A program made the translations under genes and the position numbers. A stretch of DNA of 64,000 bases from Sarea resinae (Eukaryota): assembly GCA_026026165.1 (NCBI GenBank), contig JAPEUD010000021.1, positions 1 through 64,000 of the forward strand. Direction: 5' to 3'. This document shows, in pieces, positions 24,829-47,990 of this stretch (positions within the stretch are counted from its first letter, which is position 1; every line of letters begins with the position of its first letter). The notes beneath the pieces are model-generated. The model made no database searches, had not been told where the DNA came from, and saw only the letters and a program-made list of their open reading frames with translations.

Positions 24829-24982
24829 TGTGGGGCCCTCGTGGCATCCGCAGTTTTGTTTCTCGCCCTCATCCCCTCATCTCATCTTCTTTGTGGAGCC
24901 CTCGTGGCATCCGCAGTTTCGTTTCTCTTTCCATCACCTCACCTTCCCCTTTCTTTTGTGAGGCTCTTGAGCTTCGCAGTTG
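24829..24982 (+). repeat. Array of 3 stem-loop repeats upstream of the 25025 ORF
   Basis: TGTGGGGCCCTCGTGGCATCCGCAGTTTTG (24829), TGTGGAGCCCTCGTGGCATCCGCAGTTTCG (24892), TGTGAGGCTCTTGAGCTTCGCAGTTG (24957); spacing 63-65 nt with pyrimidine-rich spacers. Confidence 0.9.
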
Positions 24983-25024
24983 TGGACTTTTCACTATCCT
25001 CCCACCCGATCTTTACAGCACAAG

Positions 25025-25588: not shown

Positions 25589-26031
25589 GCCGAAGGCCTT
25601 CTTGCCTCCAGACCAGGTATGAGTATCCGAGCCTATAGATTTACCTAATCAGGCTAATTTGCAGACGCTTGCGATGACGTCTAAGATGATGGCGGCTACA
25701 TCCAAAAGACCCCAAGCCTGATCATATTGAATCCAACGTCCAGGCGCGCCAGCAACAGCCAGCCCCAATGGCCAAGGAGACGGACTCAGCCCCTCCGATT
25801 GCTGCATTTCGAATACAAGGCACTCAGACGTGTTTTCCAGTGGCCATCTCACGAAAGCAGGATTTCAAAACTCTGAGGATCTCCACGTTGTGTGACAGAG
25901 CAAAGCTGTTCAGCAGCTGCAGTCCTGGCTGTTCAGGCATCCCAAGGAGAACTAGTCAAGAGCTGAGGCCTGCTTGATCAACTAAGATGCTTTCCTCGCC
26001 GGCACTGTACCGAGGCTGCAGATAACGGTCA

Positions 26032-26490
26032 TCAGTATATTCGATGCCTTGGAGAACAACAACCATTCCGTCGATCGAAGATAACAAGAAATATGGGTGA
26101 TGGGTCTATTTTCGTCGAGTTGAACGGATGGTTGGCGACATGTATTTGGCGCTTTTTGAGTCCGCCCAGGCCAAGGAGGAAGGTGGAGAAGTCGAGAGCG
26201 GAAAGAGCGAGGCTAAGCTGCTCAACAGCAGCGAAGTACCGAAGCACCTCTAGAAGTCAGTATGAATATGCCTACAGGATGTCTTACCTGCACCAGGCCA
26301 CGGTCCAACTTGTCGCACCCATTACCATCCCTCCTTTGGAGAACATTCCAAGATCCTTTCCAGTAGCTCCGTAAGCCACCCACCTTCCCGGAATTCTGTA
26401 GCGGTAGGCCAGTCTCTCGGATGAAGCGTCGTCATATTCAGCAATATTCAGCAAGAAGGCTCGCTTTCTTGTTGCTCGAAGTCATGTAGC
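26032..26490 (-). pseudogene. Spliced orphan gene remnant with a stop codon and a 10-bp duplication
   Basis: Reads ..LNMTTLHPRDWPTATEFREGGWLTELLERILECSPKEGW*WVRQVGPWPGA, then an intron (GTAAGA..CTGAC..TAG, about 26288-26251), then EVLRYFAAVEQL..; boundaries approximate. Confidence 0.45.
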
Positions 26491-27442
26491 CATGTCGGAT
26501 TAGGCAAGCTGGATGTATGAGCTTGGCTTTACCTACATCACGATCGTTGAGCCCCCCGAATCGTGTAGCATGATACGCGTTTGATTGCCTCATTCTAAGC
26601 TGCGTCGAGGCTCTGTATCCTAGCTGTTTAGTAGGGTGGTTGGATTAATAACCACAAGACTGAGAGGGTTGAAGAATAGAAGAAATGGATCGTTGTGAAT
26701 AGACGTAATATAAGCATAGCTGACAGTAAAAATTAAAGCACCATTGAGGATCCCTCCAGCCATAACCCAATTTCAAATGTATATACGTAGCATTAAGGCC
26801 GCAATGTAGGTCAATGTTTCAGACTCGCGCAACAGTCGAGAGGAGGTCAACGCTTTCGATCAGGCGCGTTGGTATAATGACAGCGAAGATGATCGCTATG
26901 AGATCGAGATCATGTGGATACTTACTAAATGATCACCTCTCAATGATCATCTACTTTGCCAGGTGTTTTGATCTGGTAGAGCGAATATCAGCAGCGCCAA
27001 ATTGAGGATCGACAATGCCAAATCAAAGAGCTCGAAGGCCATATGGAGGCGCCTGGGAGATAAAATACGCGCAAGATATTGAAATGCCGTTGATCGATCT
27101 CTCCCTTAGCAGCCAGGACTGTCGTTGGCTGACGGACAATCCTTTCCTTTCATAGCTGGCTGTCTTCGTCCATGTAGAATTGTATCACCCTAGAGCGCCT
27201 GTGATTGTAAGATACTACAAAGCTCTGAGCTTTTATTTGTCTGCAGTTTCTACAATGTAACCACAGGTTTACAATATATTTGCAATCACAACAATTAAAG
27301 GTGTGGTATAGTATAGCAATAAGAACTAGAGAGACCTACAATATAATATCGATAGAGAAAAAGAAAAACAACAGGCTTTAGAAGATCGTGAAATGATTCA
27401 AACAATGGCCGAGGACGTGGCATCTCTGATAGCCGAGCCGCA

Positions 27443-30058: not shown

Positions 30059-30114
30059 TGTGTGCGGAGTGAGTCGTGATAGGATCCAAAGAACGAGAGA
30101 TGGTATAGGAACGA

Positions 30115-30142
30115 CGAAACTGCGAAGCCCAAAGGCCTCACA
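30115..30142 (-). repeat. Single stem-loop repeat upstream of the coiled-coil gene
   Basis: Minus strand TGTGAGGCC-TTTG-GGCTTCGCA-GTTTCG; 9-bp stem with G-U pairs. Confidence 0.9.
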
Positions 30143-30597
30143 AGTAACGACGAGAAATTGATGGTCTGAGCTGTAACGTGACATCCAGCGCAGAGGAGAG
30201 CAGTTCTTCTGATACGCCAGTAGCTTATGGATCGGTGGAAAGTCGCAGCGGTATGTATTCGGGAAGATGGATGGAGTCAAGTAAAGCGTCGCGGAGGATA
30301 GATGGAGGATTGATGAAGTCAGGTAAAGTGTCGCAGGATGTATGGATTCGGATGCACTGCCGCCGCGAAGCGAGAGGTGAATCAAAGAAGAGTAATGGCA
30401 CAGACTTTGCTTGATGGTGTGTGCCTTTGCTAATTATTGAATACGAGTTGTGCCATGAGCACCATCTTCTCTCACCATCTTCTCTCAACACCACCACTCA
30501 ACACCATCATACCATCATCAGCATACCCCCACCCACGGTGATTACGTCTACTTCGTGTCAGTCTTTGGTGATATATTGCTCCTCTTCCCATCGTCCT

Positions 30598-30625
30598 TGT
30601 GGGGCCTTTGGGCTTCGCAGTTTCG
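30598..30625 (+). repeat. Single stem-loop repeat upstream of the GIY-YIG-like gene
   Basis: TGTGGGGCC-TTTG-GGCTTCGCA-GTTTCG, 58 nt before ATG 30683; one difference from the inverted copy at 30115-30142. Confidence 0.9.
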
Positions 30626-30682
30626 ATTCCCTCAATCATTATTCATTACCATCTCATCCTCAATATCACACACCCCACTACA

Positions 30683-32287
30683 ATGGATTCGCCGCAAATA
30701 GGATCCTCCCCTCCCGAACGGTCTCCTCGGTCTCCTCAACTTCCCTCGACTCAAAGTCTCGTATCACCTCACCAAGAAGCTCCTCGTGGACAACCTTCTG
30801 AGATGAGACTCACTTCGCCTCGCTTCTCAAGTGTTTCCCTCGTTGAAGAGACACCTCCTCCACCTGTAATAGTCGACTATGTGGCAGATTTCCCGGATTA
30901 TCCATTTGACCCTTTGCAGAAGGAATTCATGGAACAGCTCGAGCTTAGTGGGGATGGCGATTTGCTTAAAAGCATCAAGAAGCAAGGTAATGGATGTACC
31001 TTTCCAGCAGATGACAACAATGACTGACTGGTTTCGATTTTCAAGACATGATCGATCCTTTTAGCAGCCAAACAAACATCTTTCTCCGGGCCGAAAGATA
31101 TGCTAAGGTCTATGGATGTCAGGTCCTCTTTTCCCTGCCGAAGGAAGTCAAGACTGGGTTAATCAAGGGGGATCTTTTGACGCGACAGCCGCCGATCCAG
31201 TTGACAGGCCAGGCTCGACTGAGGGATGTGGAGCTCGCCAAGAAGGCGTGGCCTGTGATATACGGACATTTTCACGTACATCGCAAGACAAAGCAGGCTC
31301 CAACGGCCAACCAGTACTTCAGGGTCATCGGTGATATCGAAAATTACATTCAGCATTTCATGGGGGTTCGGGTTACCAACCATGCTCACGATCTGAATGC
31401 GCACAGGATCGACGCAGTCATCCAGACCGGAAAACCCTGTGGTTTTCGAGATGGAGACTCATTGACGGGCAAGCGGCGATATTGTCAGAGTGATGCATAC
31501 CGCGCACACATTGAGACATGGCTGGCAGGATTACGTTGCCGGCTTAGACTTATTCCCATAGCGCATCACGACAAGCCAATCCCATGGCCTTTGTGCGGAG
31601 TTGGGTACACTTCTGACCCGGCCACCACAGAACAGCAACATCGCGAGCATACGAGTTCTCAGCAACTCATGTACCTGGTCCGCTCGGCATTTGATCGCCG
31701 CTGGCCAGACAACTTCGAGATGGAGTTCATGGTCCTGTACGAATGCTGGAATTCCGAGCAAGCTCCAATTGCTGAGCATGTCATATCACGACTTTGCTTC
31801 TCATACGTCCCACATGGCGGATTCAATGTGACATTAGGTGGGGTAGGCAACATATCAGCTCAGGATGAGCCTGAGACTATCTATGAGCCGATTTGGGAAG
31901 ACGTCCTCGAACGTGGTCACTTTACAGAGAATCTTGAGTTCGCGAACGATTGCGTTGAGAGGAAATTAGACTTGGTCAGACAGATCAAGCAAATCAAGGC
32001 GGAAGTGGCCGAATTCGAGGTGCTCAAAGTTGAGCATCTGGCCAAGAGGAAAAGGTTAGCAAGGCTCCAACACGAAAATGCGGTCCGAGGTAAGCTTGCA
32101 AACCATCTATGTGATGATAGGACTAATTGGAAAAGGTGCTGAAATAGAGAGACTCTCTATCCCCTACCTTAAACGTGTTCTGGCAGACATCAAAAAAGCG
32201 AATGAGATACTAGCGGAGTCGGAAGTTTTGGCAGCTTTTGCGGCAGATGTCAATGAATTGGCCGAGCTTGGCAGGAGACCGCAGTAG
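30683..32287 (+). CDS. Hypothetical protein of about 500 aa with a GIY-YIG-like nuclease domain and C-terminal coiled coil, 3 exons
   Basis: Introns 30987-31045 and 32090-32135 (GT..CTRAY..AG) join three ORFs in frame. Motifs VGYTSDPATTEQQH, AxxAExxI and GGFNVTLGG resemble the GIY-YIG pattern (YxG..R..QH..E..GxN). The gene model is better supported than the domain call. Confidence 0.65.
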
Positions 32288-32969
32288 ATTGGCGGAAGTT
32301 CCCTTACGCGTATTCTTCCAGAGTGTCAGAAGTTCCAGCTAGCTTTAAATATCATGCGTTGTCCTGTCGCGTTCACAAAGTTGAATCCATCATGATCTAC
32401 GTCCACGTCAGATTAAGCTCGCGCCGCTACATCGGCCTCGGCTAGCTGCATTGACCGAAATTCCGTGTGGCAAGATCTGTGCGCATCGCTTGGATAAGCG
32501 ATGATAGAGGGTTTACGGCGTCCCTAATCAGATAACGATGATCATGTTCTCTCTTCCCGTGAGCAAATCGCATTCCACATCATCTGTCGTCTGACGCCAT
32601 CATGTCTTTTGACCTTACCGGTGTCTTGGCGTACCTAATATTGCTCGCGCCAATTATTGTGGATGATATTGGTGAGCACCAAAATCTGCTTCTCAATTCC
32701 ATTGCCATGTAAATACAAGAAAAATCGCATCAATGTAAGGTACAGTAAATAGGCAAGCATGTTCCTAGTTGCGCTCAAAAGGCTACCATAACCTGGCTCG
32801 TCCGGTCCATACCCAGTTGCCTACTATAAAGCGCAGCGCTCCTCGCATTCGAAGAGAAAGTGAGTGAGGACTTGACCGCCAGGGAATAAACCATTTCAAA
32901 TTCAATACCAGAAAATACACTAGATCCTAAGCCCCCTCAGCCTGGACACCAAATTTCAAGCTGTTCTGC

Positions 32970-34560
32970 TCATGTCGCTGTGATATTGAAGCGTACATGT
33001 ACCTTAGTCTGTCGTTGGATCTCATCTGGGGTGGGACTCTTAGTTCGGACGATGTGCTCCTTGATAAAATACACACACTGGCGCCCGGTTACGGCAAAGG
33101 CATGGCACTTGTTGGTCATATTCGGCCAGTAAAAGTTGCCTCCGTGCGTGATTGCCTGCACCCACCAGCATTTGGTTTGGTGGTTCTGATTGACCACGAG
33201 ACTGGTGTTTCGCGCGGCAAGGCCTTTCCTTTTGATGGTGTTCTTGATCTTATTGTGAAGGATCGAGGCGTCCAGGAGCTCGTACCCGTCGTCGACCTTT
33301 CCTACGTTGATGTCGAGGAAATTGTTTGGCCGAGCGTTGATCACGAATGCAGCAGGGCGAGGATCGCGCTCTTGCTCTGGGGACAGAGCAGGCGAAACTC
33401 GAGACCTTGCTGGGATTCTTTGCGTAGCTGTCCCTGTGGCCGCCAAGCCCGATCTCCTTCCTCGCAAGGAAGTTCTGGTCCTGCTCGCGATCGTTGGTTC
33501 GAGAAAGCCCCGAGCGCCTCCACGGCTGCGATCGCTGGTTGGAGCCACATTCTCACCAGTCCTGGAGCGTTCCCCTTCCTCGGGCCTCGAGCCGTTGTCT
33601 GCCGTCGTAGAAGCGCTCTTTGCCGACAGCGAACGATACCTACCCGAGCTGTCCCGAGGTTTGACCTCTTTGCCCTTGCTTCGGGCTCGGCGTCCGTCCG
33701 CAAATGTCAGAATAGTTTTGAGCATAGTGACCCACCTTCGTCTGAGCTGACATTGTACAGATCTACTTCTGGCGAATCGGCCTTGTCATGTTGGGGGAGA
33801 ACATCAGGCGTCGCGTCCATCGCTGCCGGAAGCTCACTTACAGCTGTGCTCGCACGGTGGCGGTTTTTCTCCGGGCTTATACTCGGAACGTGACCACGAG
33901 CACCTGCCGTTGGCGAGACTACTCTTTGACCCTCCGTGGCAGCCTGGCCGGCATCGTGAAGAGAAAGCACCTTTTGCCATCTGGCGTTCCTTTCGTCGGC
34001 TCTCTTTTCTCCCCTTTCTTCTTCCAACCTGCCCGCTTCCAAGAGCCGCTCGATGTTGACGTCAAATTGGACGGCAAATTGGCTGACCAGTGATCTAGGG
34101 TCGTAAGAGTTTACGAGGCGTTGAAAAATCAAGCCCTCCTCGTCTTCCCTGAGGGCCTTGCAGGTCTGCGTAAATAATTGATCACGCTCGGTATGCCAGA
34201 GGGAATCAATGTATAGGAGGACAAGCTGCTTGAACACCTCCACGACCTTCTTAACCAATGCCTCTCGATCTTTACCGGCCAGATTACCCAATTCAGTGTA
34301 GATACTAGTCTAGATCTTGTCAAGTGCTGTCACGATATCTGCCGGAAGGTTCTCGTTGAGATATTGAAAGAGCGTGTCCGAGAGGATCTTCTTGATCATC
34401 GTTTCGTGCACTTCCTTTAGCAGGTCGAGTTCTTTGCTCCTCTTCTCGACCTCAATCTTCCAACCATTGCTAGTACGTGCTAGAACTTCCGCATGGCTTA
34501 CCTTGTCATCAGCTGCGGCTTTCGTGAGTTGAGCGATTGCCCGCTCATGCTGAGTTTGGA
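32970..34560 (-). pseudogene. Orphan gene (helical/coiled N-terminus, low-complexity middle, Cys-containing C-terminus) with a RIP-type stop
   Basis: ..QHERAIAQLTKAAADDK, intron GTAAGC at about 34500, IEVEKRSKELDLL..ALDKI*TSIYTELGNLAGK (TAG at about 34310, CAG>TAG type). A probable intron at about 33735-33686 links it to the 32970..33725 frame. The 5' end is lost in AT-rich sequence. Confidence 0.55.
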
Positions 34561-34842
34561 AACCCTACAGCCAAGAATAAGGATACCTTCTATTGGCCCT
34601 GCAATATACCCTAGTAAAAATTAATCTAAAATATTAATTGTCTGATAAGGACAGTTAGGATACACTTCCTCTAGCTCTTGTAGCAGAGGATTGCGTATTG
34701 TAGTTAGAGCCGGCCTTTTATGTCTGCATGAATAAGTTATTAGAGGCTGTCATTAGCGCTTGAGGCCAATCAGTAGATGTATGTCGGGCTAATGTAGCAG
34801 GATGCTTAGCCTAGATGCAGGAATTCACAGGCATGGCTTGTT

Positions 34843-35160
34843 CTAATGCTTATTTCGTATGGCCTCTTTCAGCGGCACGAAGGATGCGAATTCTAAATCG
34901 GCTGGTAGCGACGTCAGCCCGGCGAAGTCGAAAGCAGCAGTCGCCGGGGTCTTCCTTGTCGTGGAATTCCAGTCATTGGTAACCCTCTTGCCCATAGTTG
35001 GCTCATAGCCCGCGGCAATGAAGATCATTTGAGCCATCTAAGTGAGTACAATTTTCTGGCGGGAAAGATAGAGGGAATTCAGGGTTCCATCTGTATAGAC
35101 CAAGCTGAATACAATGAACTTAGCTTCTGAGCCTTCGAAATTGTCGCTGGTCTCAACCTG
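34843..35160 (-). pseudogene. C-terminal fragment of an SF1 helicase paralog (copy C)
   Basis: QVETSDNFEGSEAKFIVFSLV (motif V) and FIAAGYEPTMGKRVTN align with QVETREKFQGSEAQV and FITVSHEPTMSKRVPN of copy B. Confidence 0.7.
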
Positions 35161-35825
35161 TGAACGAGCCATTCACCCAGTATCGCAGTGAATGTGGAGG
35201 TATCGATGACGTGCTAAGTCCAGAATAGTCGGAGACCAGTTTGATGGCGTTCGCATAGATGCAGTAAACCCTCGTCTTCAGGATGGGAAGATGCCTAGAC
35301 CTTCGCGCAAGCCAGATCCACAATGCTTTTTGCTTTTAGGCCTTGCAATTCCTCACGCGATTGTCTGCGTAGTCTATCCGCAGAAAGTATAGGGAAATCG
35401 TTCGACTGTATAACAACTTTAAGTATAGTGTCTACCGCCTAGTTCTCTACTGCCTGCAAGTTAGTACAGTCGTAGTCAGATAACACTTGCCTAATAGCTT
35501 TGTGTCGCCCGCCCTTGATTTTATTTAAGGTCACCCCGAAATGTATGTACGCTTCTAACAACTTAGCTTTTATTAATTCTCTTATCTAAGGATTAGGGCC
35601 TGAAATAGTCCTGCTATCTGGTCGAAAAATCGTCTGCTATTATATCTCCTGTTAGTCACGTCTTTCGTATAACAGGAGAGCAACTTACTTTGCCAGAAAG
35701 ATTTGACATAATATGGCGAAGCAATCAACTGTAGAGTGAAGTGAAGGGCTTGATTCTCTTATGACACTATCTCCTCGCGCCCTTATCATCGAAGCACGCA
35801 ATGGTCAGCACAGAGTCCGGATCAC

Positions 35826-38800
35826 CTAGGCCCCAGCAATCCTGAGGGTCCCTTGCACCCTCACGGCGTTTGCCCCGAGAAGCTTCAGGACATCGGCCAT
35901 AGGGCAGGGTTTGTTGGGTACCCTCTTGCTCATGGTCGGCTCGTGGCTGACGGTGATGAACACTTCCCGTGCCCTTGATGTGGCGACATTGATGCGGCGG
36001 GGGTGGTGGAGGAAACCTAGGGTGTCATCGGCACGGACGAAGCTGAATACAGGACTTGAGCTTCGGAGCCTTGGAACTTTTCTCTGGTCTCAACCTGCGA
36101 CGTCCAGCCATGCTCGGCCCGTATCGTCCTCAACAGGTCGACCTGATCCCGGTACGGGGTCAGGTCGACCACCTCGGCCGGCGCAATGCCCATCTTCATC
36201 AGTCCCTGCACTATAGTTGACACTACTAGTGCTTCTCGTCGAATGGAGACTATAGTGTTGATGGCATGCTGACCCTCGTGCACGTTGAAGACGTACTTGG
36301 TCGAGTTGAGGCTGAAGGCCCGGCCGGAGTCGTCGAAGAAGTTGACCGTGAGAGCGATCTCGCAGAACCGAGCGCTGAAGGGCCGGTCGACGCTCGTTGG
36401 GAAGGGGATGATGCGACCATCGTAGAACCGGACGCTGGTATGCGTGGCCAGCTCCTTATGCGCCTGGTACTGGATCCTTACCAGGGCGTAAGGCCAGCCC
36501 GAGTCGATCATCCGCTCTATCGGGGTCACATCCCATGCGCGGCTGCCCTCACCGATGATCATGACCGGACCATTCTGCTTGTAGTCGCCCGTGAAGTATG
36601 CGGCCCGGAGAGAAGGCTGCGACAGGATTGGCAGCAGACTGTCTGGGTCCTTTGCCGAAACGACCTCGTCAACGATGAGATAGTCCGCCTTGAACTTCCT
36701 CAGGAGCTTCAGGCCCAAGTTCGTACAGGTGCCGAACAAGACCTGAGTGCCCTCCAGCACCATTTCGTCGAGGGTGACCGACTGCCCTATCTGTTATCTC
36801 TATCAAAGTTTAAGTCTCTCTTTCTGATTATTTTCTACGCCCTGTCCCTGCAGTGTAGCCTCGCACTAGTTTCATAAGATTATTCGCTGTTATTAATGTT
36901 CCCAACCAGAATTAGTATTAGGAAAGATGTATTGCACAACAACCACAGAATAATTGACTTTTATAATCTTCTTGTCCTTTCCCTTTTGTAGAGTAGTAGT
37001 GTCTAACTCTTCTTAGTTTATTTTTTAGTTCTTAGAGTATTATATTAGAAGTAGTTACAACAGGCATTTTAAATGAAACTACTTACATCCTAGGCTTTTA
37101 GAAGAAAGTCTACGCTCTTTAGCTTCTCTCTTTCCTCTCTTATAGAGATTTTGTTAATAATATTATAGACATGTATAACAGCCTCTAGCTTATAGCTGTA
37201 TCTCTGTAGAAATTGTATTATAGCCTAGTTACGTTCACTAAGCAAGAGTGATTTTTCCGAAACGCTTTTATTAAACATACCTTTTGTAGAGCATAACCCT
37301 TGTAGGAGTCTGCTATTTTGGAAGGAAGTTAGGTAGTGCAGTGGTCTAAGAGTTAAGTGCCCGCTCGCTCCCGTCTTGGGTCGAGACAAGTCCGTCAGTC
37401 TCTCGATCCCGGACAGATATGGAGCCCATTGGACGGGGCTGAGATAAGCGATCCTCAGCCTCAGCGCATCCAGATCGGACGGGGTGCTCGACATGTTTAC
37501 CTGAAGCCCACGAGCCACACGTCGCCGTATGATCTGGCTCTAATAGTGGACGCGAAACGCCTTGAATGGCACATTGTACCGCCTCAAGCAGGTGGCACAC
37601 TTATGCTTGGCAATTTCTATGGCTGCAACATACCTATTGCTAAATTTAATATCACATCTTTTGTAGCTTCCTCCTTATTAGCTTCTTGATTCAATCATCT
37701 ATAGGTAGGACTCTAGTATAAGCTATAGTCAGACTTGTCTTCTGTATTTCAAGATATCTTGCGGTCGAGTCTAATCAGGATTAGCTAGGCAAAGGACACT
37801 ATTTACGTTAACGATTCCATGACCTTTACTTAAGTCGTCTGTTGCAAAATTATAAGGCTAGGGTAGATCCTGTAGGCAGCTTCTTTTTCTGCCTTTGCTA
37901 GTCGTCGACAACTTTCTCGCCGCGTCGGCGTGTCGATCGGCAGTAGGGTCGGCGAAGTCGACGGTGACATGGATCCCCTCTTGCACAAGGCCGTCGTATT
38001 TCTGCACGTCGACTCTATCTTCGACGATGCCGACGACTGATCCAGAGAAGGGCAACTCCGACTCGACCCGAACGCCAAGAACATCTTCGCCATCGTCGGC
38101 ATCGGGCTCAGGGTTCGTGAGCCGGATTCGCTGGCCGGAACTGATATCCCAGGCCCCCGTAGCTGCTTGCACCGGTTCGATCTGCGCCACGATGAACCCA
38201 CGATACGCGTGGTAGCGGACGGTGCAGCACTCACGCTCTTGACCGTTCAGCCTCTCTTTTGCGGCCTTTGACTCTGCAGAGATCGCGTCGAGATTCATCT
38301 TAATGTACTCTCGGAGGTGTCGTTAGCTCATGAACTTTTTATCCGACACCTCTAGGAGAGGGTCCGCGGCGATGTACTTGTCTGCGAGTCGAATACGCAA
38401 GCCGTCATACTCCCGAATTTTCTTGCATGCGGGAATGTGTTCGGGTCGGAGCAAGCGAAGGCAATCTGGTCGGCCTGGTGGGAAACCTGGTCCGTATTGC
38501 GGGATCTTGCCGCCGTGTACGCATTGGGCTTGACGCTGAACGTGAACTCGGTCATGTTGTCAACGGTCCGGTGCTCGTACTCGATCTTCTCCCACTTGAA
38601 CACGACGCCGTATTTGACCGAGCTGGATTCGCCCTTTGGACTCACGCGCGATTGCCATATCGAGAGCTCTGGGTGAAGGGTCATCCTAGCATTGAAACCT
38701 GTTGGCGTTTCTTCAGGCAACTCCCCATCTCTTTTCCGAAGCATGAACCATAGTCGATCTTCGTCGCGGGCGTCGTTCGCCTCAGTAGAAAAGAGTACCC

Positions 38801-38846
38801 AAATGGGCAAAGCCTTCAACTTCTGGAGTTTCAGTGGTAGCACCAT
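35826..38846 (-). pseudogene. Upf1/DNA2/Nam7-like superfamily 1 helicase gene (copy B), fragmented
   Basis: Motifs LIVDE (II), GDYKQ (III), IQYQAH and FYDG (IV), LTPYRDQ, KFQGSE (V) and, after a frameshift near 36050, RRINVATSRAR (VI). N-terminus MVLPLKLQKLKALPI at 38846. Walker A was not found; AT-rich tracts interrupt the gene at about 36790-37340 and 37600-37890. Confidence 0.8.
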
Positions 38847-38875
38847 GACGAAAGCGTTGGAGGGTCGGGAGAATG

Positions 38876-39159
38876 GAAATTGCGAGCGTTACTCAGAGAC
38901 ATGGCCACAAACAGCTAACCAGGGAGGAGAAACACTGACATGAAACTGCGAGAGTCACGAGGACTTCATAGACAAAGGAACAAGAGAAAAAGAGGAACAC
39001 ACACAACACTTCGGGAGTACGATCACACGAAACTGCGAAAGCCGAAAAGTTTTACAATCAAGAGAGAGAAAAAGAAGGTAGACACAGTGAAGTACGCTGA
39101 TCTCAGAGATGAACAACAGAGAAGAGATCGAAACTGCGGAAGCCGAAAGACCCTACACA
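38876..39159 (-). repeat. Array of 4 partly degenerate stem-loop repeats upstream of helicase copy B
   Basis: Plus-strand units GAAA(C/T)TGCG...CACA/CATA/TACA at 38876-38909, 38941-38970, 39028-39056 and 39129-39159. Confidence 0.8.
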
Positions 39160-39540
39160 GACGACGACGAAGTAAGATAGGTCAAGGGAGAGACAAGCCA
39201 GATATCTGCGCGCCCGGGGTCCCATGACGCATTCTACACGAAAACAGCACATATCATCGCACCTCTAGCGTGACCGCACCCACGAGATGTTGCTTGTCAT
39301 TACGCTCCTGTGTTCCGACACCACATTTTCAACTGCCCGACGTATTCTTTCCCACCTAGCTACTAAAGGCATGATATGTAGCAGCTTGTCAATTTGTCTG
39401 GCCTTCAGCTGTCAATGCCGGTACTGATCCAGTGTCGCTCGGCACTCCTGCAAGCTTAGTTGATGTGGGTCGAGGGCGATCTTTAGTTAGACCGTTAGTG
39501 AATGACTTTTCGTTCCCTATAATGCTTGCTTCTGCTACAA

Positions 39541-39843
39541 TCAGTATAGAAAACCAAATTGGTAGCTGGCAAAGCTCAAGGTCGGTTTGACTCTCGCGGC
39601 TTTTGCTTTGAGCAGCTGCATGACGTCGGCCATAGGGCAGGCCTTGTTAGGAACCCTCTTGTTCATGGTTGCGCGTGAATAGTAAGCTATCGGCGCGGAA
39701 AATGTTGAACACGATACTTCCCATCTTGTTTCAAGCGTGTACCATGTCCGATCGTCGTTGGCGACATCGTCCGTACCCGTAGAGAAGACGATTGTGATGG
39801 GCAAGTTCTTCAGCTTCTGAAAATTCAGTGGTGGGACCGACAT
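39541..39843 (-). CDS. 100-aa internally deleted mini paralog of the helicase gene (copy A)
   Basis: N-terminus PLNFQKLKNLPITIVFST..DDRTW matches copy B PLKLQKLKALPIWVLFST..EDRLW; C-terminus TMNKRVPNKACPMADVMQLL matches copy B TMSKRVPNKPCPMADVLKLL. Confidence 0.7.
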   Translation of the reverse strand: MSVPPLNFQKLKNLPITIVFSTGTDDVANDDRTWYTLETRWEVSCSTFSAPIAYYSRATMNKRVPNKACPMADVMQLLKAKAARVKPTLSFASYQFGFLY

Positions 39844-39866
39844 CGCGAAGGTATTGAAAGGGGTAT

Positions 39867-40198
39867 CGAATTGCTGCTGCGAGCGTCACCAAGAGCCTCA
39901 CAAAGCAATAATCGAGGATATAAACACTTACACGAAACTGCGAAGCCCAAAGGCCCCACAGACGAACGGGGTTTAATAAACGCACACGAAACTGCAAAGC
40001 TTAAAGACCCCACAAACAAACTGGAGGGTGATGACACACACGAAACTGCGAAGCCTAAAGGCCTCACAGGTAACGAGAAACTGATGGTCTAGAAACTTGC
40101 GTAGAGTAAATGAGAACTGCGAAAGTCACTAGAACCTCACACCAAACAATTGTGAAGGTGAAATACACGAAACTGCGAAAGTGACTGATGACCTCACA
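39867..40198 (-). repeat. Array of 6 stem-loop repeats with unique spacers upstream of helicase copy A
   Basis: Plus-strand CGAAACTGC...CC(T/C)CACA units at 39867 (degenerate), 39933, 39987, 40041, 40113 and 40168; period 54-55 nt for most units. Confidence 0.92.
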
Positions 40199-42444
40199 AA
40201 CAAACGAACCGGGAAGGTGAGGAAGAGAGTTTCTTGGAAGAGAGTTGATAGTGGAACGGTAAGAAAATCAGGTTTCTGTGACGAAGACTCGCGTACTTAT
40301 AGAGAGGCGACGTAATCACTCTCAAGAAGTAGGTGTGAAATTAGTGTGATTTTTAGGAGTGTTCTCTCTGCGAAACTCTTGCTCTGCTACTATACTCTAT
40401 CTTTTCGAAGAGTATAGTTTAGAAAAGAGCTTTCTCTATTGTTAAATTTGAATCTCTTGAAATTAGAACAGTAGTCGTATAAGTTTGTTAGGGTACTCTG
40501 CAGCAGTAAGATTATAACAAATATAGAAGTAATAAGCTCTAGGCTTGTTAAGACTATTTACTCAAGAATGGTAGTAAAGCAATTGTAGTGTATTTATGCT
40601 TCGTTCTTATAGAGGATTTCTTAGTCCTGCTTGAAATTGGTCGCTCGAGAAGGCAGCAAAGAGATTTGGTCGTGTCGTAAGACACGGCGACAGGCCGTAG
40701 ATAGTAGATAGTATATCGATCGTAATGTCGGAATCTTATATTTATACTGTGACCTGGCTCTATTACAGGCACTGTATTGCCAGCACTAAATCGTTCGCGA
40801 ATTCAGCACAGTCTGCAGAGCCAGCTAGGTAGTCTGTAGAATAGTGTGTTAGTATATTTCTATCGTGAGAGACCGGCCCCCTGGTTATAGCTGATGTCCG
40901 ACAGAAAGTGAACAGGTAAGTGAATGCTTATAGATAAAGTTTCTACTCGGCAGAGGTGAATGCCTGTGGGCGTAGAACTGCATTCACCGTGAAAGCCGAG
41001 TGGAAAAAAGATAAGGATGACATAGAGACAGCCGTTACAGCTGTTGCGAATCAATGAGCTCTTTCTGGCGCTTGAGCGACTTCTTCTCGAATATAAGCAA
41101 GACTCTAGCTTTAGCCTCTCGAGTCACCAAATCGTGCCAGAAAAGCACTGCAGAGAGGACGCGAGGGATCGAGCATCTTGCTAGATTCTCATAAGTCGTA
41201 GATAGCATCCTTCAACTTCTCAATCCAGGGCTCCCAAAACCCTCGAGGGCCTAGTGTCGCTGCTTAAGGTCAGCAGCTATGCATGCGAGAGAATGGCTGT
41301 ACTAACTGCATTATTCTACTCGAAGCATGCTCTAGCTTATTTGATGTGATCGTCGATGACAAGGGCTTACCAGTGGTTTATCAAGGAATGGTTGACAAGA
41401 GGTGGCTAACTGAGGAGGACGTTCCTTGCTTCGTTGATTCAAAGAGTCTGAATATAATTCATAAGAGGTTGCGTGAAAAAGAAAGAGAAAGCAGATTAAG
41501 CAGATTAAGCAGATATTTATATCTGCTGGTGTTCGGTTAGGCAACAGGCAATTCATTGTAGAACTAGTGGGGGAATCAACTTTCAGAAAGGGAAGTGACG
41601 GTGACTCGACTGGAAAAAGAAGCTTCACTGAGAAATAGCGTGTCAGAAGGGAGTGTGTATGATGTAGCATCTTAAAAGAGAACTTGTGTAATGCGTGGAA
41701 GGTAGATGAATGCCCCGACTTAGAGGATACAATGGCCATGTCAGCATTTCTGGCTCTGGACCGTGGCATGTTGCTCGGGTGAAGTAGCTCGTGGAGTTAT
41801 ATCGGGTTATATCCCAGCGAATTGTAATGCTCAAGGAATGTATTGCACCACTGGAACACATCGCGATACGTCAGCATTTGATATCTTCATCCAGCCAAGC
41901 TCTCCAAATTAGTCAGCAGTTGAGTTCAGGACGTGCCAGTATTACAACACGATCCCTTTCCGCCGCGTTTGCACTCGACAATCCGAGCACCGCTTCACTC
42001 ATAGGATCTACGAGCTTTGCGAGCATCCCCGACCTAAGGGGACCTTTCGTCATTGCAAAAAAGAACTAACCCAACGCAAAGATAATGTCGGTATCGGATC
42101 GATGACGAAGGGAGGGGCTTGTGAGGCATGTCTACACAAAGCAAACAAGCCAGCAAAGGAGCGAAAGTCGGAGATCTGTGTATGGCCGCTCTTTCAGCTT
42201 ATTAGAAGGCATTCTGATCATTCAAGACTGATGTGGAGGGCTCGTTGTTGGACATGCTGGCGGGGGTCTAGTCCCTCTGGTCAGTCTTCAGCGTATCGGA
42301 TACTCCATTGTCGTCGCTAGTCTTCTCATGGCATCCTTCAATAGCTATACCTTCGAATACAAGGATATTTCTAGCGAGTTACGTTAGTCTTCATCCCATT
42401 GACTGTAATATCTATCTGCTTACTTCTCCATGGCTAAATCAGAT

Positions 42445-43320
42445 TCAATCAGGCTGCCGTCCCAGCAACGAGGTGAGAGCATACACGAGTTTGAGGACCT
42501 GGACCGCAGCGCAGATGGTGAAAGCAGTGGGCAGATGGGGGAGAGGATTCATTAGTTGAGAGGAGCTTGGTTGTGATTGGATCCCCGATATTAGATTCCC
42601 CTCTTCCAGGGCCGCCTGGCGAATACACTCGAGATCGGTGATGACTTCTGCCACTGATTTGTAGACGGCCGCCCAGCATTTATCAATGTGATCCTTGAGC
42701 AAAAGCCGCTCTGCGCGTGGAAAGATGCCAGCTCTGAAGAGTCCTTGAACCTTGTCACCAGAAGCTTTGTCGTGATGTGGTCGTTGGGCGGTGGAGATTT
42801 CGTAGAGCACAGAGCCCAGTGCAAATATTTCGGAGCGTATAGAAACCTCGTCATCGTGAGGATATCGAGTCCGCGCGTCGTAGGCCACCATTGCTTCCTG
42901 GCCGTCAATCGAGGATCCCGCAAAATCGCAGAACTTTACATCATCATGCGGATCGACGAGGAGATTATGGCATCCGATGTCAATCTGCAAAACCGCGTTC
43001 TCGTGCATGTATTGTAGCCCTTCGGCCACCTGGATCGCCCATTGGAGGATGAGATGCGTCGAGACCGCTCCATTGCAGTCTTGATTTCGCTTGCGGAGTT
43101 GGCATTCCAGTCTTTCTAGCATGATGCCCTTCTCGTTTGACCCCAGAGATTTGACGATCCGCGGATGCAAACCCAATCGGGCGTAGATCCTCGTCTCGAT
43201 GTCCATGCTCTTTCGGCCCCAGTCATGCGGCAGATGCATCTTGAAAACGCGCTTTGCGTCTAAAGCGTAGACGATCCCGGAAGCACCAACACCTATGGAG
43301 TAGGGTTACTTTTCCGGCAT
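42445..43320 (-). pseudogene. Protein-kinase-like gene with a stop at codon 5
   Basis: MPEK*PYSIGVGASGIVY (Gly-rich loop), VFK, HPRIV, QIDIGCHNLLV (variant catalytic loop), DFAG, IFALGSVLYEI. Confidence 0.75.
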
Positions 43321-44642: not shown

Positions 44643-45801
44643 AGTAAAGCATGATTGGGAAGATAGGTGACCAACACCCCCTACACAGGTCTTACCGCCC
44701 GCGCCGTCCGGTCGTCCGACGCGGACCCTATGATCAGTCAGTCAGTCCTTGGTGTCCACTTACGATCCCGTACAGCGTTCGAATTCTGGTTCACGTGCAC
44801 ATATACAGTCTTGCCATGTTCAGGATATAGATGTGCAGAGAAGGTAGAGGGAGGAGTGTAGATATTGATGACAAGCTAAGCCACTAAATACTACGCCGGG
44901 TTTTCTTACCTTAGTGTTGCACACCTTACTGTTGCACACACGGAGTACTCCCGTCTCGTTCGCGGTCATTGGGATCAGCCGAGCAGATAGACCAGATGCC
45001 AAGTCTCTCCTCGTCGACTCTCCAGCTACTATTGCACGCTACGTATGGCTAGGCCTGACACGCCGGTGGGCTCAATTCGTAGAGTACAGCCTCAAAACAA
45101 CCAGGCAACCGTTGATGGAGGCGCGCGCCAGGAACGTCTGGAATCATGGGCTACAGGGCTAAGCCAGGCTGTGCATATCCAGGCTCCATTGGACTGCACT
45201 AATGAGGGGCGTCTATCAAGTCGCTCGAAGCGCCTTGTTCAGGCACTCTCGTGCGTGTTGTAGGATTGGTGCATCAAATGCATACCCACCGGCGCTCAAC
45301 AAGTTTCGGAAGTCATTTGCTCTGGCATTTCGTCTTGACCCCTACTATTGAACGTAAGTCTTGAGACGATGCTGGACGATGTAGCCGCGCGCGGAGCATT
45401 GGTGGGGTTGACGATGATACGCCTGGATCCTGACGATCTCGGCATATGCACGACCAGTGAAAGTGATCGGTTTGCCGCACGCAACATGAGATACTGCTCT
45501 GGCTCGGCATTAGCCAACCAAAAACGAGAATCCTACCATGGATTCTCAACAGTCTCAGCCTTGCCGCCTCCGCCACGATTTCGAGATGTCCCGTCATCAT
45601 CTGCTTCGTCTGCCTTGTTACCATCCGTTTCGCCTGCCTTTATCGTCTGCTTCGCCTACATTGTTATTTGCTGCTTCGCCCACCTTTTTATCGTCTGCTT
45701 TATCATCTGCATCGTCTGCTTTATGGTCTGCTCGTCTGCGTTCAGACGACTGCATCGTCTGCCTGCTTCGTTCTATCAGATTACTATCCCAACCAAAAAT
45801 C

Positions 45802-47990
45802 ATGGAGCCTCTAAGTGCTGCAGCGAGCATGATGGGCGTTGTTTCGCTCGCTGTTCAAGTTTGCAACGATATCAACCAAGTGCACAACTTCTGGCTGTCG
45901 GTCAAAGATGCACCGGCAGATGTCCAGCAAATTCTTGATGAATTGGACCTGTTCATGCAGTGGATCAGTATCATAGCGGAAGAGTACCGGCGAAGCCCCG
46001 TTTCGGGACCGACCGAAAAGGCGGCCATGGATACATTGATGCTATGTTGGAAGGCAGCTGGAGAAATGAACGCAATGGTAAAGGACCTGGAGAGCGGACT
46101 AGCAAAGTCAGGAAAGGCTCGTCATTGGAATGCGATGAAAGCGGTCTTGAGAAAAGAGAAAATAGAGAAAACCCAATGGCAGATAGAGCGGATGAAGTCT
46201 GTCTTGAATACCGCGCAGATATTCACCATTTGGTAAGTAGCTCCAATTTTGCAGGAGTTTACTGATGCAAGACAGGACGACGTTGGCTAGCTGCGTAAAC
46301 GGCAAGTCGCTGCTGGATCATACGGCTGGACCGGACGGCAAGGCTACCGCATCAGTGACTCTGCAAAACGGAAGTCCCATTGGCGACATTCAGAGAAGAC
46401 AGGGTTATCCCAAACATACGAAAGTCATCAATCAAAGACAAGAAAATTATGCCTTCTGGCTAGCCTCTTTGACCTGGACGTCGCTCGACATGGAGCTTAT
46501 CACGGTTGACGAGAACACCGGAAAGGAGTACAAGACCAACCAGCAGCGGATTTCTTACAACATCAGGATGTCACAATGGTTGTGGCGCCGAGCCTTCTCT
46601 TGGTATTCGAATGGGATGTTCAATACTTGGACTCGCGAACTACGTACTTTCCGTTACATTCCGGAGGATTCTCGAATCGTGGAGTATTGCAAAACCGGTG
46701 ATATCGACAATGTCCAGAAAATGTTCGATTGGGGACTGGCATCACCATTCGACAGAGTTCATCGAAAGCTCTGGGGCTATGACTCCAACCCGGATGACGA
46801 CTATACTCTACTACATGTAGGTACCCCTCTTCATCTACTTTCTGACTGTAAAGCTGACCTGTGCCTTACTGAGCAGTACGCTACGGAAGGTCGCCATGTT
46901 CAACTGTGTAAGCTCTTAATTCGGCTCGGCTTGGGTAACGGGGTGGCGTCTGGGGTTTCATAGTAAGGGATCCAAATACATCTAGCGCAACGCTATTATA
47001 CTAACCTAACAAAGTTTCCCAATCTTGACTATGGTCTTCGACGCGAGGTCAGATGAGCTGCCTCTCGTGCCTCCCGATAATATGGTTGAGACATTAAGGG
47101 TACTGGTTGAAGACGGTCAATATGATCCGGCGGCACGAGAGGGCAACCAAACTGCTCTAGACACTTATAAGGGACCTGCTGAAGGACTCAAGTACCTTCT
47201 AAACCAGAACGAGTTTGTATTAGACTTTGAAGACGAATCTTACCTTTTTCACTACCTTCTACAGAATCCTAATACCACCAGATCGCGGTACCTCCCTGAG
47301 CTGGTTGCAACAGTTTTAGAACATCAAAAACGTCATCCCGAAACGCTACAGTTTGAGGTCCTCCCCCGAATTGTATATAACGCACCTCTCCAATTCGAAT
47401 TTCTCGAATTCCCAAAACAAATTGCGCTCCTGGTAAGCGCTGGGGCCGACGTCCATTTAATCGGCCGTTCGAGTTCCAAAACACTGCTTGACAAGCTTCT
47501 GGAAGCTTCAGCGCTCGAGCTTCGTGATAGGTTCTCCACCGTGCCACGATATATGGAGAAAAACAGAGGAGATCCCTTATCCCTAGAATCTGACTCTTCT
47601 ACGCCTTTCAGGAAGGTACCTCGGCGAGAACTGCGCAGCTGGTATCCCGCCGATATACCTTATCTGCCAGGGATGGAGTTGATACAGCGCCTCCTAGACG
47701 CATGGGTGGAGATCATACATGAGGCTGGGATAGACATGGAAGCCTACGGGCGCAGGGAAGAATCACTGCATCCAGATCATATATTCTCAGCCTCCCTAGA
47801 GGATACCGACTCTCGGATGCCGAAGACCCGTCGCCTCTTTCAAGCACGTTTCGTGTTCGACTATGGCGAAAAAGTTGACGGGCTACGGATCCGGGTCGTT
47901 GAGCTTTTGGGCAACGAATGGAAGACATTGCGGAATCTCCAAGGCCGGCCTGTCCAGTCTATGCCCGGAGGTTGGATCATCGAAGAATAA
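45802..47990 (+). CDS. Protein with a fungal STAND/HeLo-like N-terminal helical domain and degenerate ankyrin-like repeats, 4 exons
   Basis: MEPLSAAASMMGVVSLAVQ..VKDAPADVQQILDEL N-terminus; GDIDNVQKMF..ASPFD, TLLHYA..GRHVQLCKLLI and LLVSAGADVH ankyrin-like segments. Introns at about 46233-46275, 46817-46876 and 46963-47014 keep the frame. Confidence 0.7.

Follow-up and report, generated by a model that had tools for sequence, protein, structure and literature searches.

What is a repeat array with a 54-nt period doing directly upstream of an open reading frame at the end of a fungal chromosome? The window analysed here, a stretch of 64,000 nt from Sarea resinae contig JAPEUD010000021.1, begins with the CCCTAA telomere repeat (1-124), which identifies it as a chromosome end. 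At 39868-40200 it carries conserved units alternating with variable spacers. The initial annotation had compared this layout with a CRISPR array, and had proposed either a precursor cut at each hairpin into small RNAs or a multivalent platform for protein binding. Our case is built on one metagenome-assembled genome, and our readings of transcription are drawn from its DNA.

We found six copies of the element upstream of ORF E, three of them exactly 54 nt apart. Together they span 34-330 nt upstream of the ORF E start codon (ATG at 39843, minus strand):

39541-39843, minus strand: ORF E, 100 codons, from the ORF list; a chimeric gene fragment.
39868-39904, minus strand: copy E1; nhmmer E=1.4e-05; sense fold -15.0 kcal/mol, z -1.81.
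39929-39962, minus strand: copy E2, a short variant that folds strongly in sense (-15.9 kcal/mol, z -4.49; reached in 0 of 200 shuffles).
39983-40016, minus strand: copy E3, a short variant whose stem is weakened (-5.4 kcal/mol in sense, z -1.20).
40037-40070, minus strand: copy E4, a short variant that folds strongly in sense (-16.3 kcal/mol, z -5.04; reached in 0 of 200 shuffles).
40108-40143, minus strand: copy E5, long variant; nhmmer E=6.2e-06; sense fold -8.1 kcal/mol, z -1.10.
40164-40200, minus strand: copy E6, long variant; nhmmer E=3.5e-06; sense fold -4.8 kcal/mol, z -0.62.

A 13-nt core, ACGAAACTGCGAA, begins at 39932, 39986, 40040 and 40167. With up to two mismatches allowed, the window contains 12 occurrences where 1.61 would be expected; 12 was reached in none of 100 shuffles. 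Tandem Repeats Finder reported the region 39930-40069 with period 54, 2.6 copies and 78% matches (score 173), and a separate repeat search gave three 54-nt units at intervals of 54 and 54 nt, with units 74% and 69% identical to the reference. The 54-nt spacing described in the initial annotation is thus correct, with its coordinates corresponding to the core register shifted by +1. Its other measurements had to be revised. It had counted five units, overlooking the weaker E1 at 39868-39904 that adjoins the ATG. It had given the last interval as 55 nt, and in register this is 56 nt (CTGCG at 40117 and 40173). Instead of repeats of 28-31 nt and spacers of about 26 nt, we measured elements of 32-34 nt as delimited for the mismatch test (the short and long variants together span 32-37 nt) and spacers of, in order, 27, 22, 22, 39 and 22 nt. 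E1 is a weak long variant, and the 3' end of its hairpin lies 34 nt from the ORF E ATG. E6 lies farthest out, at 330 nt from this codon.

The contrast between conserved repeats and divergent spacers is real. In register, we counted 3-5 mismatches per 32-nt element and 13-16 per 22-nt spacer, and the difference is significant in all three pairs compared (Fisher p <= 0.0013). Aligned in this way, spacers are no more alike than random sequence, since their identity was matched by 3162, 8094 and 12361 of 20000 shuffles, and to that extent the claim of unrelated spacers stands. With gaps allowed it does not. The spacer between E3 and E4, the spacer between E5 and E6 and the flank past E6 are mutually related (0-5 of 1000 shuffles), and the spacer between E4 and E5, which is the distal flank of E4, is homologous to the flank of a distant copy, B1, with a match of 17 of 18 nt (0 of 1000 shuffles). 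Because of these similarities, some of the spacers must be regarded as diverged duplicates. Matches to other sequences were looked for as well: the three spacers compared with a viral collection (mostly phage) had no exact match there, and the two searched in the window had no other match within 3 mismatches.

The element is not confined to ORF E. Nine further copies, making 15 in total, lie upstream of four other predicted genes, which we call A, B, C and D:

24827-24988, plus strand: A array upstream of ORF A, with copies A3 (24827-24862), A2 (24890-24925) and A1 (24955-24988).
25025-25588, plus strand: ORF A, 187 codons, proline-rich; start codon taken from the ORF only.
27443-30058, minus strand: gene B, predicted, an 871-aa coiled-coil orphan protein; the Atlas has the 871-aa sequence letter for letter.
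30111-30144, minus strand: B1, single copy; sense fold -15.0 kcal/mol, z -3.46; E=1.7e-05 with a model of the E copies only.
30596-30629, plus strand: C1, single copy; sense fold -14.0 kcal/mol, z -3.00; E=5.4e-05 with a model of the E copies only.
30683-32290 (end approximate), plus strand: gene C, predicted, a 499-aa orphan protein (P0002), divergent from B.
35826-36793, minus strand: truncated Upf1-like helicase fragment (Pfam AAA_11 and AAA_12; alignment).
37858-38846, minus strand: gene D, predicted, a 306-aa orphan protein (P0003) in two exons.
38873-39160, minus strand: D array upstream of gene D, with copies D1 (38873-38911), D2 (38937-38972), D3 (39024-39058) and D4 (39125-39160).

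Each of the 15 copies is upstream of a predicted start codon, and with respect to the gene they all point the same way. Read in the gene sense, the consensus is YTTGTGRGG, followed by 8-13 variable nucleotides and YCGCAGTTTCG(TG). The 3' end of the proximal hairpin is 34 nt from the ATG at D and E, 46 nt at A, 62 nt at B and 63 nt at C. An nhmmer search with all 15 copies, whose members match by construction, returned 15 matches at E <= 0.0034, with the next one at E = 3.1. The A copies scored E=1.1e-06 to 1.8e-05, with folding energies of -11.6 to -12.5 kcal/mol (z -1.82 to -2.99), and those of D scored E=4e-06 to 0.0034, with most of their stems degenerate (z -0.92 to +0.90). When the model was built from the six E copies only, it recovered B1, A1, C1, D2, A3 and A2 at E <= 0.0022 and placed D4, D3 and D1 at E = 0.24-0.65, ahead of the first unrelated match at E = 7. 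Conversely, a covariance model of the A, B and C copies ranked the 10 held-out D and E copies right after its 5 training copies, eight of the ten at E <= 0.45. In this model, which lacks the D and E copies, E2 reached 41.4 bits (E=6.8e-08) and E3 23.6 bits (E=0.0016).

The arrays themselves bear traces of duplication. A3 and A2 together make up a tandem repeat of 63 nt with 95% identity. The D array can be aligned with the E array, with four copies in D and six in E, and here again the elements are better kept than their surroundings: E1-E3 are identical at 75 of 105 positions, compared with 43 of 88 for the stretch of leader between the ATG and E1 and the three adjoining spacers. Two ORFs that overlap the repeats were considered as coding and rejected, an 80-codon ORF with a GTG start at 39825-40067 and a 95-codon ORF at 38940-39227. 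Both lack a signal sequence and track the repeat period, and the former has no ATG start.

Searches beyond the window returned little. Scanning the metagenome with a 28-nt pattern of the short variant gave no matches, and a looser gapped pattern matched at 16 loci, once at each and never twice. Eight of these 16 sites scored 7.4-20.8 bits in the structure model and the other eight did not appear at E <= 10, compared with 39-51 bits for the strong copies of the window. On a rough estimate, we take all 16 for chance matches and not for relatives. Among sequencing runs, one DNA run, which may be the source of the stretch, and no RNA run contained it. The contigs of the DNA run compared with 39800-40279 contained the locus itself and a 37-nt piece with the flanks of the B locus, by an aligner that misses 30-nt matches such as C1. 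Rfam 15 searched over 24000-41000 at E <= 10 gave three chance-level matches, none of them at an element and all far below the gathering scores. A full-text literature search for a 12-mer of the element, in both orientations, returned papers whose titles and abstracts have no bearing on gene regulation in this fungus, and the titles found for Sarea resinae genomes included no genome or regulatory study.

The starts of B, C and D are consistent with database gene models. The predicted proteins of A, B, C and D are unrelated orphans: BLASTP among the A-E proteins gave no pair at E < 0.05 except D and E (50% identity over 38 aa, E=3e-09). ORF A had no family match. Protein B had only a sub-threshold Cast match in Pfam. 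The sole database match of protein C was itself, named as a hypothetical protein of the Sarea resinae metagenome-assembled genome. Protein D belongs to no Pfam family, and among 1.84 billion representatives it matched itself (99%, 306 aa) and a repeat protein at query residues 6-51, which we judged spurious as a homologue. The Atlas models are of low confidence (pLDDT 0.27 for D and 0.43 for B), and the ESM Atlas neighbours of D and B, with scores <= 0.81 and TM <= 0.36, gave no lead.

ORF E is of a different kind. Its codons 1 to ~45 are paralogous to gene D, as seen in the DNA alignment of D and E, and its 3' part derives from the helicase fragment, whose 3' end it copies (77% identity between 39569-39669 and 35836-35936). 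It is a chimeric and probably dead gene fragment, and since it is degenerate, the E array may no longer serve anything. Duplicated gene fragments are abundant around the array in the repeat comparison of the window, among them helicase pieces at 35122-35163 and 36059-36100. The initial annotation had mentioned a nuclease-like gene and helicase genes nearby. We found no nuclease family near the array, and the helicase is only a truncated fragment covering AAA_11 profile positions 186-254 of 257, the last quarter of this profile, plus AAA_12. A homologue search with the helicase ORF returned no informative relatives beyond its own database record. The absence of cas genes was confirmed, as none of the 49 ORF translations compared with Pfam contained a Cas family.

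We then consider the pairing potential of the element. On the gene-sense strand, which is the minus strand at E, the element forms a G·U-dependent hairpin of ~10 bp; a hairpin had been proposed initially and is present, on the strand opposite to the one that had been read. RNAalifold on the gene-sense strand of 14 of the 15 copies (D1 was left out) gave 10 pairs, four of them with compensatory changes, and no consensus structure on the opposite strand, where single folds reached z < -2 in two of the five copies folded. Of 140 cells, 90.7% are paired, compared with 38.6-48.4% after the partners were shifted by 1-3 columns. Two of 500 shuffles reached the covariation score, and two reached the number of double-change cells. 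G·U or U·G occupies 47 of the 140 cells, including one U·G pair invariant in all 14 copies, and these cells would become A·C mismatches if read on the other strand. Single copies folded in the sense direction gave z <= -1.8 in eight of 15 cases, the best being -16.3 and -15.9 kcal/mol. For the whole E leader we obtained -108.8 kcal/mol in the sense direction (z -5.02, 0 of 100 shuffles) and -81.6 kcal/mol in the antisense direction (z -1.76). Upstream ATGs are also rare on this strand: the five leaders contain three against 11.1 expected (P = 0.0034), compared with 19 on the opposite strand, and the E leader contains none against 4.9 expected (P = 0.006). All three are in the D leader. The covariation, upstream-ATG and orientation statistics are inflated because the copies descended by duplication and are not independent. 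What these data suggest, with moderate support from paralogous copies, is that pairing was kept through sequence change. Adding structure raised the held-out bit scores, that of E2 for example from 31.3 to 41.4, and brought no gain in significance (E2 had E=6.8e-08 with structure and 1.1e-08 without).

Taken together, the array very probably represents a tandemly amplified, lineage-specific cis-regulatory element of ~33 nt belonging to promoters or 5' leaders, and, as part of the same judgement, the element would mark the promoter-proximal or 5'-leader region of the neighbouring subtelomeric genes A, B, C and D and of the chimeric E. Since copies recur upstream of four neighbouring genes in one orientation, it looks like an ordinary, undescribed gene-control element rather than an immune-type array. 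As to how it would act, we lean, tentatively, toward a sense-strand RNA hairpin in the 5' leader. The elements would be transcribed within 5' leaders, where each could fold into the ~10 bp G·U-rich hairpin followed by a conserved single-stranded UUUCG tail. A common trans-acting factor might then recognise them and couple these mRNAs in their translation or stability. B and C would offer it one copy, and the three to six copies on A, D and E would form a multivalent platform, a reading with which the protein-binding platform proposed initially is compatible. The arrays appear to have grown by duplication of the element together with its flank, after which the flanks would have drifted and the element would have been kept.

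A transcription-factor site in DNA is the strongest competitor, somewhat less probable in our view but to be taken seriously. One or two factors would recognise a composite site made of the boxes TGTGRGG and YCGCAGTTTCG, the pairing would be incidental, and each array would repeat an upstream activating or repressing site, as in other fungal promoter repeats. One to six copies reaching up to 330 nt upstream do resemble arrays of factor sites, and such a reach, long for a fungal 5' UTR, speaks against an RNA mechanism, as do the three upstream ATGs of the D leader. Furthermore, the best-conserved stretch, YCGCAGTTTCG, is linear and persists in copies with weak or decayed stems (the D copies, E3, E5 and E6, z -1.2 to +0.9), a pattern that a linear motif, in DNA or RNA, explains no less well than a hairpin does. 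The antisense of the element tail reads CACGAAA in five of 15 copies, a lead only, which we take to fit the budding-yeast Swi4/Swi6 box CRCGAAA that is iterated upstream of HO. However, the orientation relative to the gene is fixed at every locus, and enhancer-type sites need no such constancy. The proximal copies lie just 34-63 nt from the ATG, and upstream activating sites are usually farther away. The distance between the conserved arms, or boxes, takes four values (18-21 nt) in the alignment, which would suit a hairpin better than a rigid dimeric DNA site. Finally, all three stem columns that are predominantly non-Watson-Crick are G·U on the sense strand, and four pairs show compensatory changes.

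The remaining explanations are weaker. We consider it improbable that the copies are a neutral relic, pieces of an ancestral promoter spread by subtelomeric segmental duplication and minisatellite-type slippage with no present function. The neighbourhood, scrambled with duplicated fragments, does count against a functional reading: in ORF E a D-like 5' end is fused to the 3' piece of a helicase, helicase fragments are duplicated, the B1 flank is homologous to the spacer between E4 and E5, several spacers are diverged copies of one another, and the orphan proteins have low-confidence Atlas models. Yet decay should strike element and flank equally, and the element is far better kept; pairing is maintained via changes on both sides, and similar distances and the sense orientation recur before four unrelated ORFs. 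Splicing in the 5' leader is very unlikely. The arms mimic a donor (GTGAGG) and an acceptor (CGCAG), and the arrays would then lie in, or define, alternative 5'-UTR introns, with the long variants carrying a branch-point-like TRAC a few bases before CGCAG. The 5' arm contains GT in every copy, the 3' arm ends in CAG in 14 of 15, and GTGAC, GTCAC or GTAAC stands 4-5 nt before the CAG arm in E1, E5, E6, D1 and D2. An interval of 55 nt in the E leader, from a GTAAGT at 39931-39926 to the E1 CAG at 39879-39877, has a typical fungal intron size. Within each element, though, only 18-21 nt separate the two arms, which is less than a fungal intron needs; no branch-like motif is present in the short variants (B, C, E2 and E4), and D1 ends in CAA instead of CAG. 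Still less credible is the terminus or relic of a mobile element, such as a Helitron 3' hairpin or a miniature inverted-repeat element inserted into promoters, to which a short hairpin dispersed over several loci and the nearby helicase-like fragment might point. A Helitron 3' terminus has its hairpin ~10 nt upstream of a CTRR end, and Helitrons carry Rep/helicase genes. Here the hairpins are followed by tails such as TTTCGTG and TTTCGAT with no CTRR end, and the helicase is an AAA_11/AAA_12 fragment, with no Helitron-type or PIF1 family in the scanned ORFs. There are no inverted repeats >= 12 nt around the array and none >= 40 nt in the window, and the copies keep strictly to start codons in both position and orientation. 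Least probable of all is a CRISPR-like or small-RNA array whose precursor is cut at each hairpin and whose spacers derive from foreign or repetitive DNA. The repeat-spacer layout, the 54-nt period and the hairpin potential are what recommends it. Against it are the eukaryotic host, repeat copies of unequal sequence and length (the short and long variants, 32-37 nt), spacers of 22-39 nt that are partly related to each other, single copies upstream of other genes, and stems of ~10 bp, where a Dicer-type precursor has ~20 bp or more; Dicer substrates have longer stems than those found here.

The RNA-hairpin reading can be carried one step further, to a proposal that we hold to be possible and, on balance, unlikely. 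The hairpin and its UUUCG tail may have been recruited to the leaders of a cluster of lineage-specific, subtelomeric orphan genes as a private RNA regulon and multiplied to three to six copies on some of them. The arrays would then give a single RNA-binding factor a multivalent place to land, from which it switches the entire cluster through translation or mRNA stability. If true, new eukaryotic genes would have gained shared post-transcriptional control via a copied leader cassette. More generally, if the element is functional, unrelated new genes at a fungal chromosome end would have been wired together by duplication of a 33-nt cassette. It offers a compact, testable motif in which the question of RNA or DNA takes a definite form, a hairpin and tail or two boxes.

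How does the element compare with known systems? It shares with CRISPR arrays a conserved repeat of ~30 nt with pairing potential that alternates with variable spacers of similar length. It differs from them in its place in a eukaryotic subtelomere without cas genes, in its imperfect repeats of variable length, in copies that stand singly at gene starts, and in spacers that are partly interrelated, that between E4 and E5 being shared with the B1 flank. With the same element upstream of four other genes and stems of ~10 bp, the analogy and the hairpin-diced precursor proposed with it are unsupported, and the CRISPR comparison does not stand for this array.

Fungal promoter repeats offer another comparison. 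Aspergillus fumigatus cyp51A has upstream repeats of 34 and 46 bp, and Penicillium digitatum CYP51 has enhancer repeats of 126 bp; like the array described here, these are short units duplicated head-to-tail directly upstream of a gene with a conserved motif inside. As in that kind of repeat, the copy number differs between related promoters (four at D and six at E). In our case 15 copies upstream of five start codons share the motif, and the genes may be co-regulated. However, the cyp51A and CYP51 repeats are recent, perfect and found at one gene, whereas the units here are old and their spacers near random, and the element is common to unrelated genes, with a fixed orientation and a strand-specific pairing potential. 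The Swi4/Swi6 boxes upstream of HO are similarly iterated upstream of a gene, and CACGAAA appears antisense in five of the 15 copies; unlike those boxes, the heptamer here is only the tail of the element, is not conserved in the other 10 copies, and is accompanied by CGCAG and TGTGRGG, which have no counterpart there.

At the RNA level the element can be compared with protein-bound hairpins of 5' UTRs, such as the iron-responsive element of ferritin mRNA. Both are stem-loops of ~10 bp near the start codon, in sense orientation, on a group of mRNAs (predicted ones in our case), and in both the lower stem is conserved in sequence and the upper stem covaries. They have no similarity in sequence or loop, and unlike the iron-responsive element, the element of Sarea resinae is present in up to six copies per leader, in leaders whose transcription, like the binding of a protein, is presumed.

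The core of the repeat, ACGAAACTGCGAA, starts at 39932, 39986, 40040 and 40167, and Tandem Repeats Finder reported an array at 39930-40069 with a period of 54, 2.6 copies, 78% matches and a score of 173. The repeats and the 54-nt period described in the initial annotation are thus real. A repeat search placed three 54-nt units in register with identities of 100, 74 and 69%. Other measurements were revised: the elements, as delimited here, are 32-34 nt long instead of about 28-31 nt, the spacers between them are 27, 22, 22, 39 and 22 nt long instead of about 26 nt, and the last interval measures 56 nt instead of 55 nt. The copies listed previously were all recovered, but the list lacked a sixth one (E1). 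Allowing up to two mismatches, a scan of the window counted 12 occurrences of the core where 1.61 would be expected; 12 was not attained in any of 100 shuffles. Eleven of these occurrences fall inside the elements, the exception being at 23138. The element was found upstream of five genes or ORFs:

39868-39904, minus strand: E1, sixth and weaker copy, adjoining the ATG of ORF E
39843, minus strand: ATG of ORF E, array directly upstream; start placed from the ORF only
38846, minus strand: ATG of gene D, neighbour and paralogue of E; own array of four copies at 38873-39160
25025, plus strand: ATG of ORF A, three copies at 24827-24988; start placed from the ORF only
30058, minus strand: ATG of gene B, one copy at 30111-30144
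30683, plus strand: ATG of gene C, divergent from B, one copy at 30596-30629

The nhmmer profile made from the full set returned exactly the 15 copies at E ≤ 0.0034 (next match E = 3.1), a recovery that is circular by construction, as the profile was built from them. When the profile was made from just the six E copies, it recovered B1, A1, C1, D2, A3 and A2 at E ≤ 0.0022, while D4, D3 and D1 scored E 0.24-0.65 and the first unrelated match E = 7. With a covariance model trained solely on the five copies at A, B and C, the ten held-out D and E copies ranked right after the training set. E ≤ 0.45 was reached by eight of them; D1 and D2 (E 2.5 and 3.8) were inseparable from noise at 4.9. The assignment of the copies to one family holds up in these held-out tests. 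Orientation relative to the downstream gene is identical in 15/15 copies. The proximal hairpin ends 34 (D, E), 46 (A), 62 (B) or 63 (C) nt from the ATG, and the farthest copy lies 330 nt away.

In gene sense, the alignment gives the consensus YTTGTGRGG, 8-13 variable nucleotides and YCGCAGTTTCG(TG), with the two conserved boxes forming the arms of a hairpin. Short variants fold into a 10-bp stem with a 4-nt loop. The sense folds reach -15.9 kcal/mol for E2 (z -4.49), -16.3 for E4 (z -5.04), -15.0 for B1 (z -3.46), -14.0 for C1 (z -3.00) and -11.6 to -12.5 for the A copies (z -1.82 to -2.99). In total, 8/15 single-copy folds have z ≤ -1.8, and the remaining seven (E3, E5, E6, D1-D4) range from -1.20 to +0.90. 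The alignment-based pairing tests covered 14 of the 15 copies, D1 being excluded. RNAalifold predicted 10 pairs in sense, four of them with changes on both sides, and zero structure on the plus strand. Paired cells made up 90.7% of 140; sliding the partners by 1-3 columns lowered this to 38.6-48.4%. Only 2/500 shuffles attained the covariation score, and only 2/500 the number of double-change cells; like the folding statistics, these values overstate independence because the copies are paralogues. G·U or U·G occupies 47 of the 140 cells, one U·G pair being invariant (14/14 copies), and since the sense pairing leans on these cells the other strand does not fold. For the entire E leader the fold energy is -108.8 kcal/mol in sense (z -5.02, 0/100 shuffles as good) and -81.6 kcal/mol in antisense (z -1.76). 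Adding structure to the model raised the held-out bit scores but not their significance, and Rfam gave no match for the element.

When the 54-nt units are compared in register, mismatches fall at 3-5 of 32 positions in the element and at 13-16 of 22 in the spacer (Fisher p ≤ 0.0013), and the in-register spacers resemble one another no more than shuffles do, so the reported contrast of conserved repeats and divergent spacers is genuine. The spacers had also been called largely unrelated, which is correct in register but, for some of them, not when gaps are allowed. Spacers E3-4 and E5-6 and the flank past E6 then form one family (0-5/1000 shuffles), and spacer E4-5 matches the B1 flank at 17/18 nt (0/1000 shuffles), a match also seen in contig pieces. 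Elements E1-E3 are identical to their D partners at 75/105 positions, and the stretch from the ATG to E1 with the three adjoining spacers at 43/88. This spacer kinship and the D/E comparison show that the arrays grew by duplication of the element plus flank, tandem and dispersed. The flanks then diverged by drift, and the element was preserved. A3 and A2 lie in a 63-nt tandem duplication (24824-24927, plus strand) with 41-nt cores 95% identical; it is much younger than the E-array duplications.

D and E are alignable from the ATG to about -160 and over the first ~45 codons, and their proteins share 50% identity over 38 aa (BLASTP). The start codons of B, C and D match database gene models. BLASTP detected no similarity among proteins A, B, C and D, and no Pfam family exceeded the threshold in them. 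The sole protein with a database match has the source name hypothetical protein, from a Sarea resinae metagenome-assembled genome. The database search returned no credible homologues of D and C apart from their own records. The sole non-self match of D, a 906-aa protein (P0004) with nine tandem ~42-aa repeats (LKELPIGVFYN...) aligned to D residues 6-51, was judged not homologous, the likeness being a chance one to a leucine-rich repeat. ORF E is chimeric: ~45 D-like codons run into a duplicate of the 3' end of a helicase fragment. The two lie as follows:

39541-39843, minus strand: ORF E
35826-36089, minus strand: helicase 3' end

Between them, 39569-39669 and 35836-35936 are 77% identical over 101 nt. 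This suggests that ORF E originated when a D-plus-helicase unit was duplicated and lost a large part of its interior. By Pfam, the helicase near the array comprises the C-terminal quarter of AAA_11 plus AAA_12 and nothing more. Since ORF E is chimeric and its helicase source merely a fragment, the gene behind the array is probably degenerate. A piece of the helicase fragment is itself duplicated (35122-35163 and 36059-36100, 86% identical), and between 33 and 38 kb the DNA resembles a mosaic of gene pieces.

The window opens with 20.7 CCCTAA repeats (1-124) and therefore represents a chromosome end, with the array ~40 kb from the telomere. Its ORFs include a multi-module NRPS, MFS transporters and beta-lactamase-fold ORFs. 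The NRPS (AMP-binding, PP-binding and Condensation domains, at least three modules) is flanked by the latter two; the region and flanking ORFs lie at 9752-22254 (plus), 22371-24030 (minus) and 4355-8332 (minus). It looks like a subtelomeric secondary-metabolite cluster, and the profile search of the window placed no element copies at its genes. Just past the array are a protein-kinase-domain ORF (42445-43239, minus) and a second ORF (45538-46236, plus) whose product carries the SesA N-terminal domain of NACHT/P-loop NTPases. Such genes are frequent company of fungal non-self-recognition loci. The ~1 kb at 40200-41300 is AT-richer (GC 0.44 for 40001-42000) and has no ORF of at least 80 aa until 41283. 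A sense-strand TATAAG (40297-40302, minus), followed by a CT-rich stretch, lies ~97 nt upstream of E6, the most distal element, with the AT-richer kilobase beyond it; this arrangement is compatible with transcription starting shortly before the array, without proving it.

Because of its presence at several genes, its anatomy and its duplication history, the element is probably a cis-regulatory one, promoter-proximal or in the 5' leader, common to a small gene neighbourhood and amplified by duplication. Our preferred, though tentative, reading is that it would act as an RNA hairpin in the 5' leader. Fixed orientation, the ATG proximity of the proximal copies, G·U-rich sense pairing and compensatory changes argue for it, as do an arm spacing with four values (18-21 nt in the alignment) and a depletion of upstream ATGs in sense (3 where 11.1 are expected, P = 0.0034, compared with 19 on the opposite strand; in the E leader, 0 against 4.9). 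We rank it above a DNA site, which is possible but less likely. In favour of a DNA site, the linear box YCGCAGTTTCG outlives the stem in weak copies, three upstream ATGs occur in the D leader, the arrays reach 330 nt, and 5/15 copies have a tail whose opposite strand reads CACGAAA, similar to the yeast Swi4/Swi6 box.

It is unlikely that the copies are neutral relics of subtelomeric shuffling. A splicing-related role is improbable. In the E leader a consensus-type GTAAGT donor (39931-39926), a branch-like GTGAC and the CAG of E1 (39879-39877) bound 55 nt, a typical fungal intron size. The D leader, with GTCAGT and GTAAC at matching places, lacks the AG. Still more doubtful is a mobile-element terminus, and a CRISPR-like or small-RNA array comes last.

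As a CRISPR array, the proposed architecture fails every testable defining feature. Unlike in CRISPR, the repeats are imperfect and variable in length, the spacers are partly related to one another and the host is eukaryotic. The absence of cas genes noted in the initial annotation was borne out by a Pfam scan of 49 ORF translations. Three spacers had no exact match in a viral collection, and two none elsewhere in the window at ≤3 mismatches. Titles and abstracts retrieved with the element's 12-mer mention nothing on gene regulation in this fungus. The family, described from one genome, comes closest to two known kinds: the tandem repeats in fungal promoters and 5'-UTR hairpins bound by proteins.
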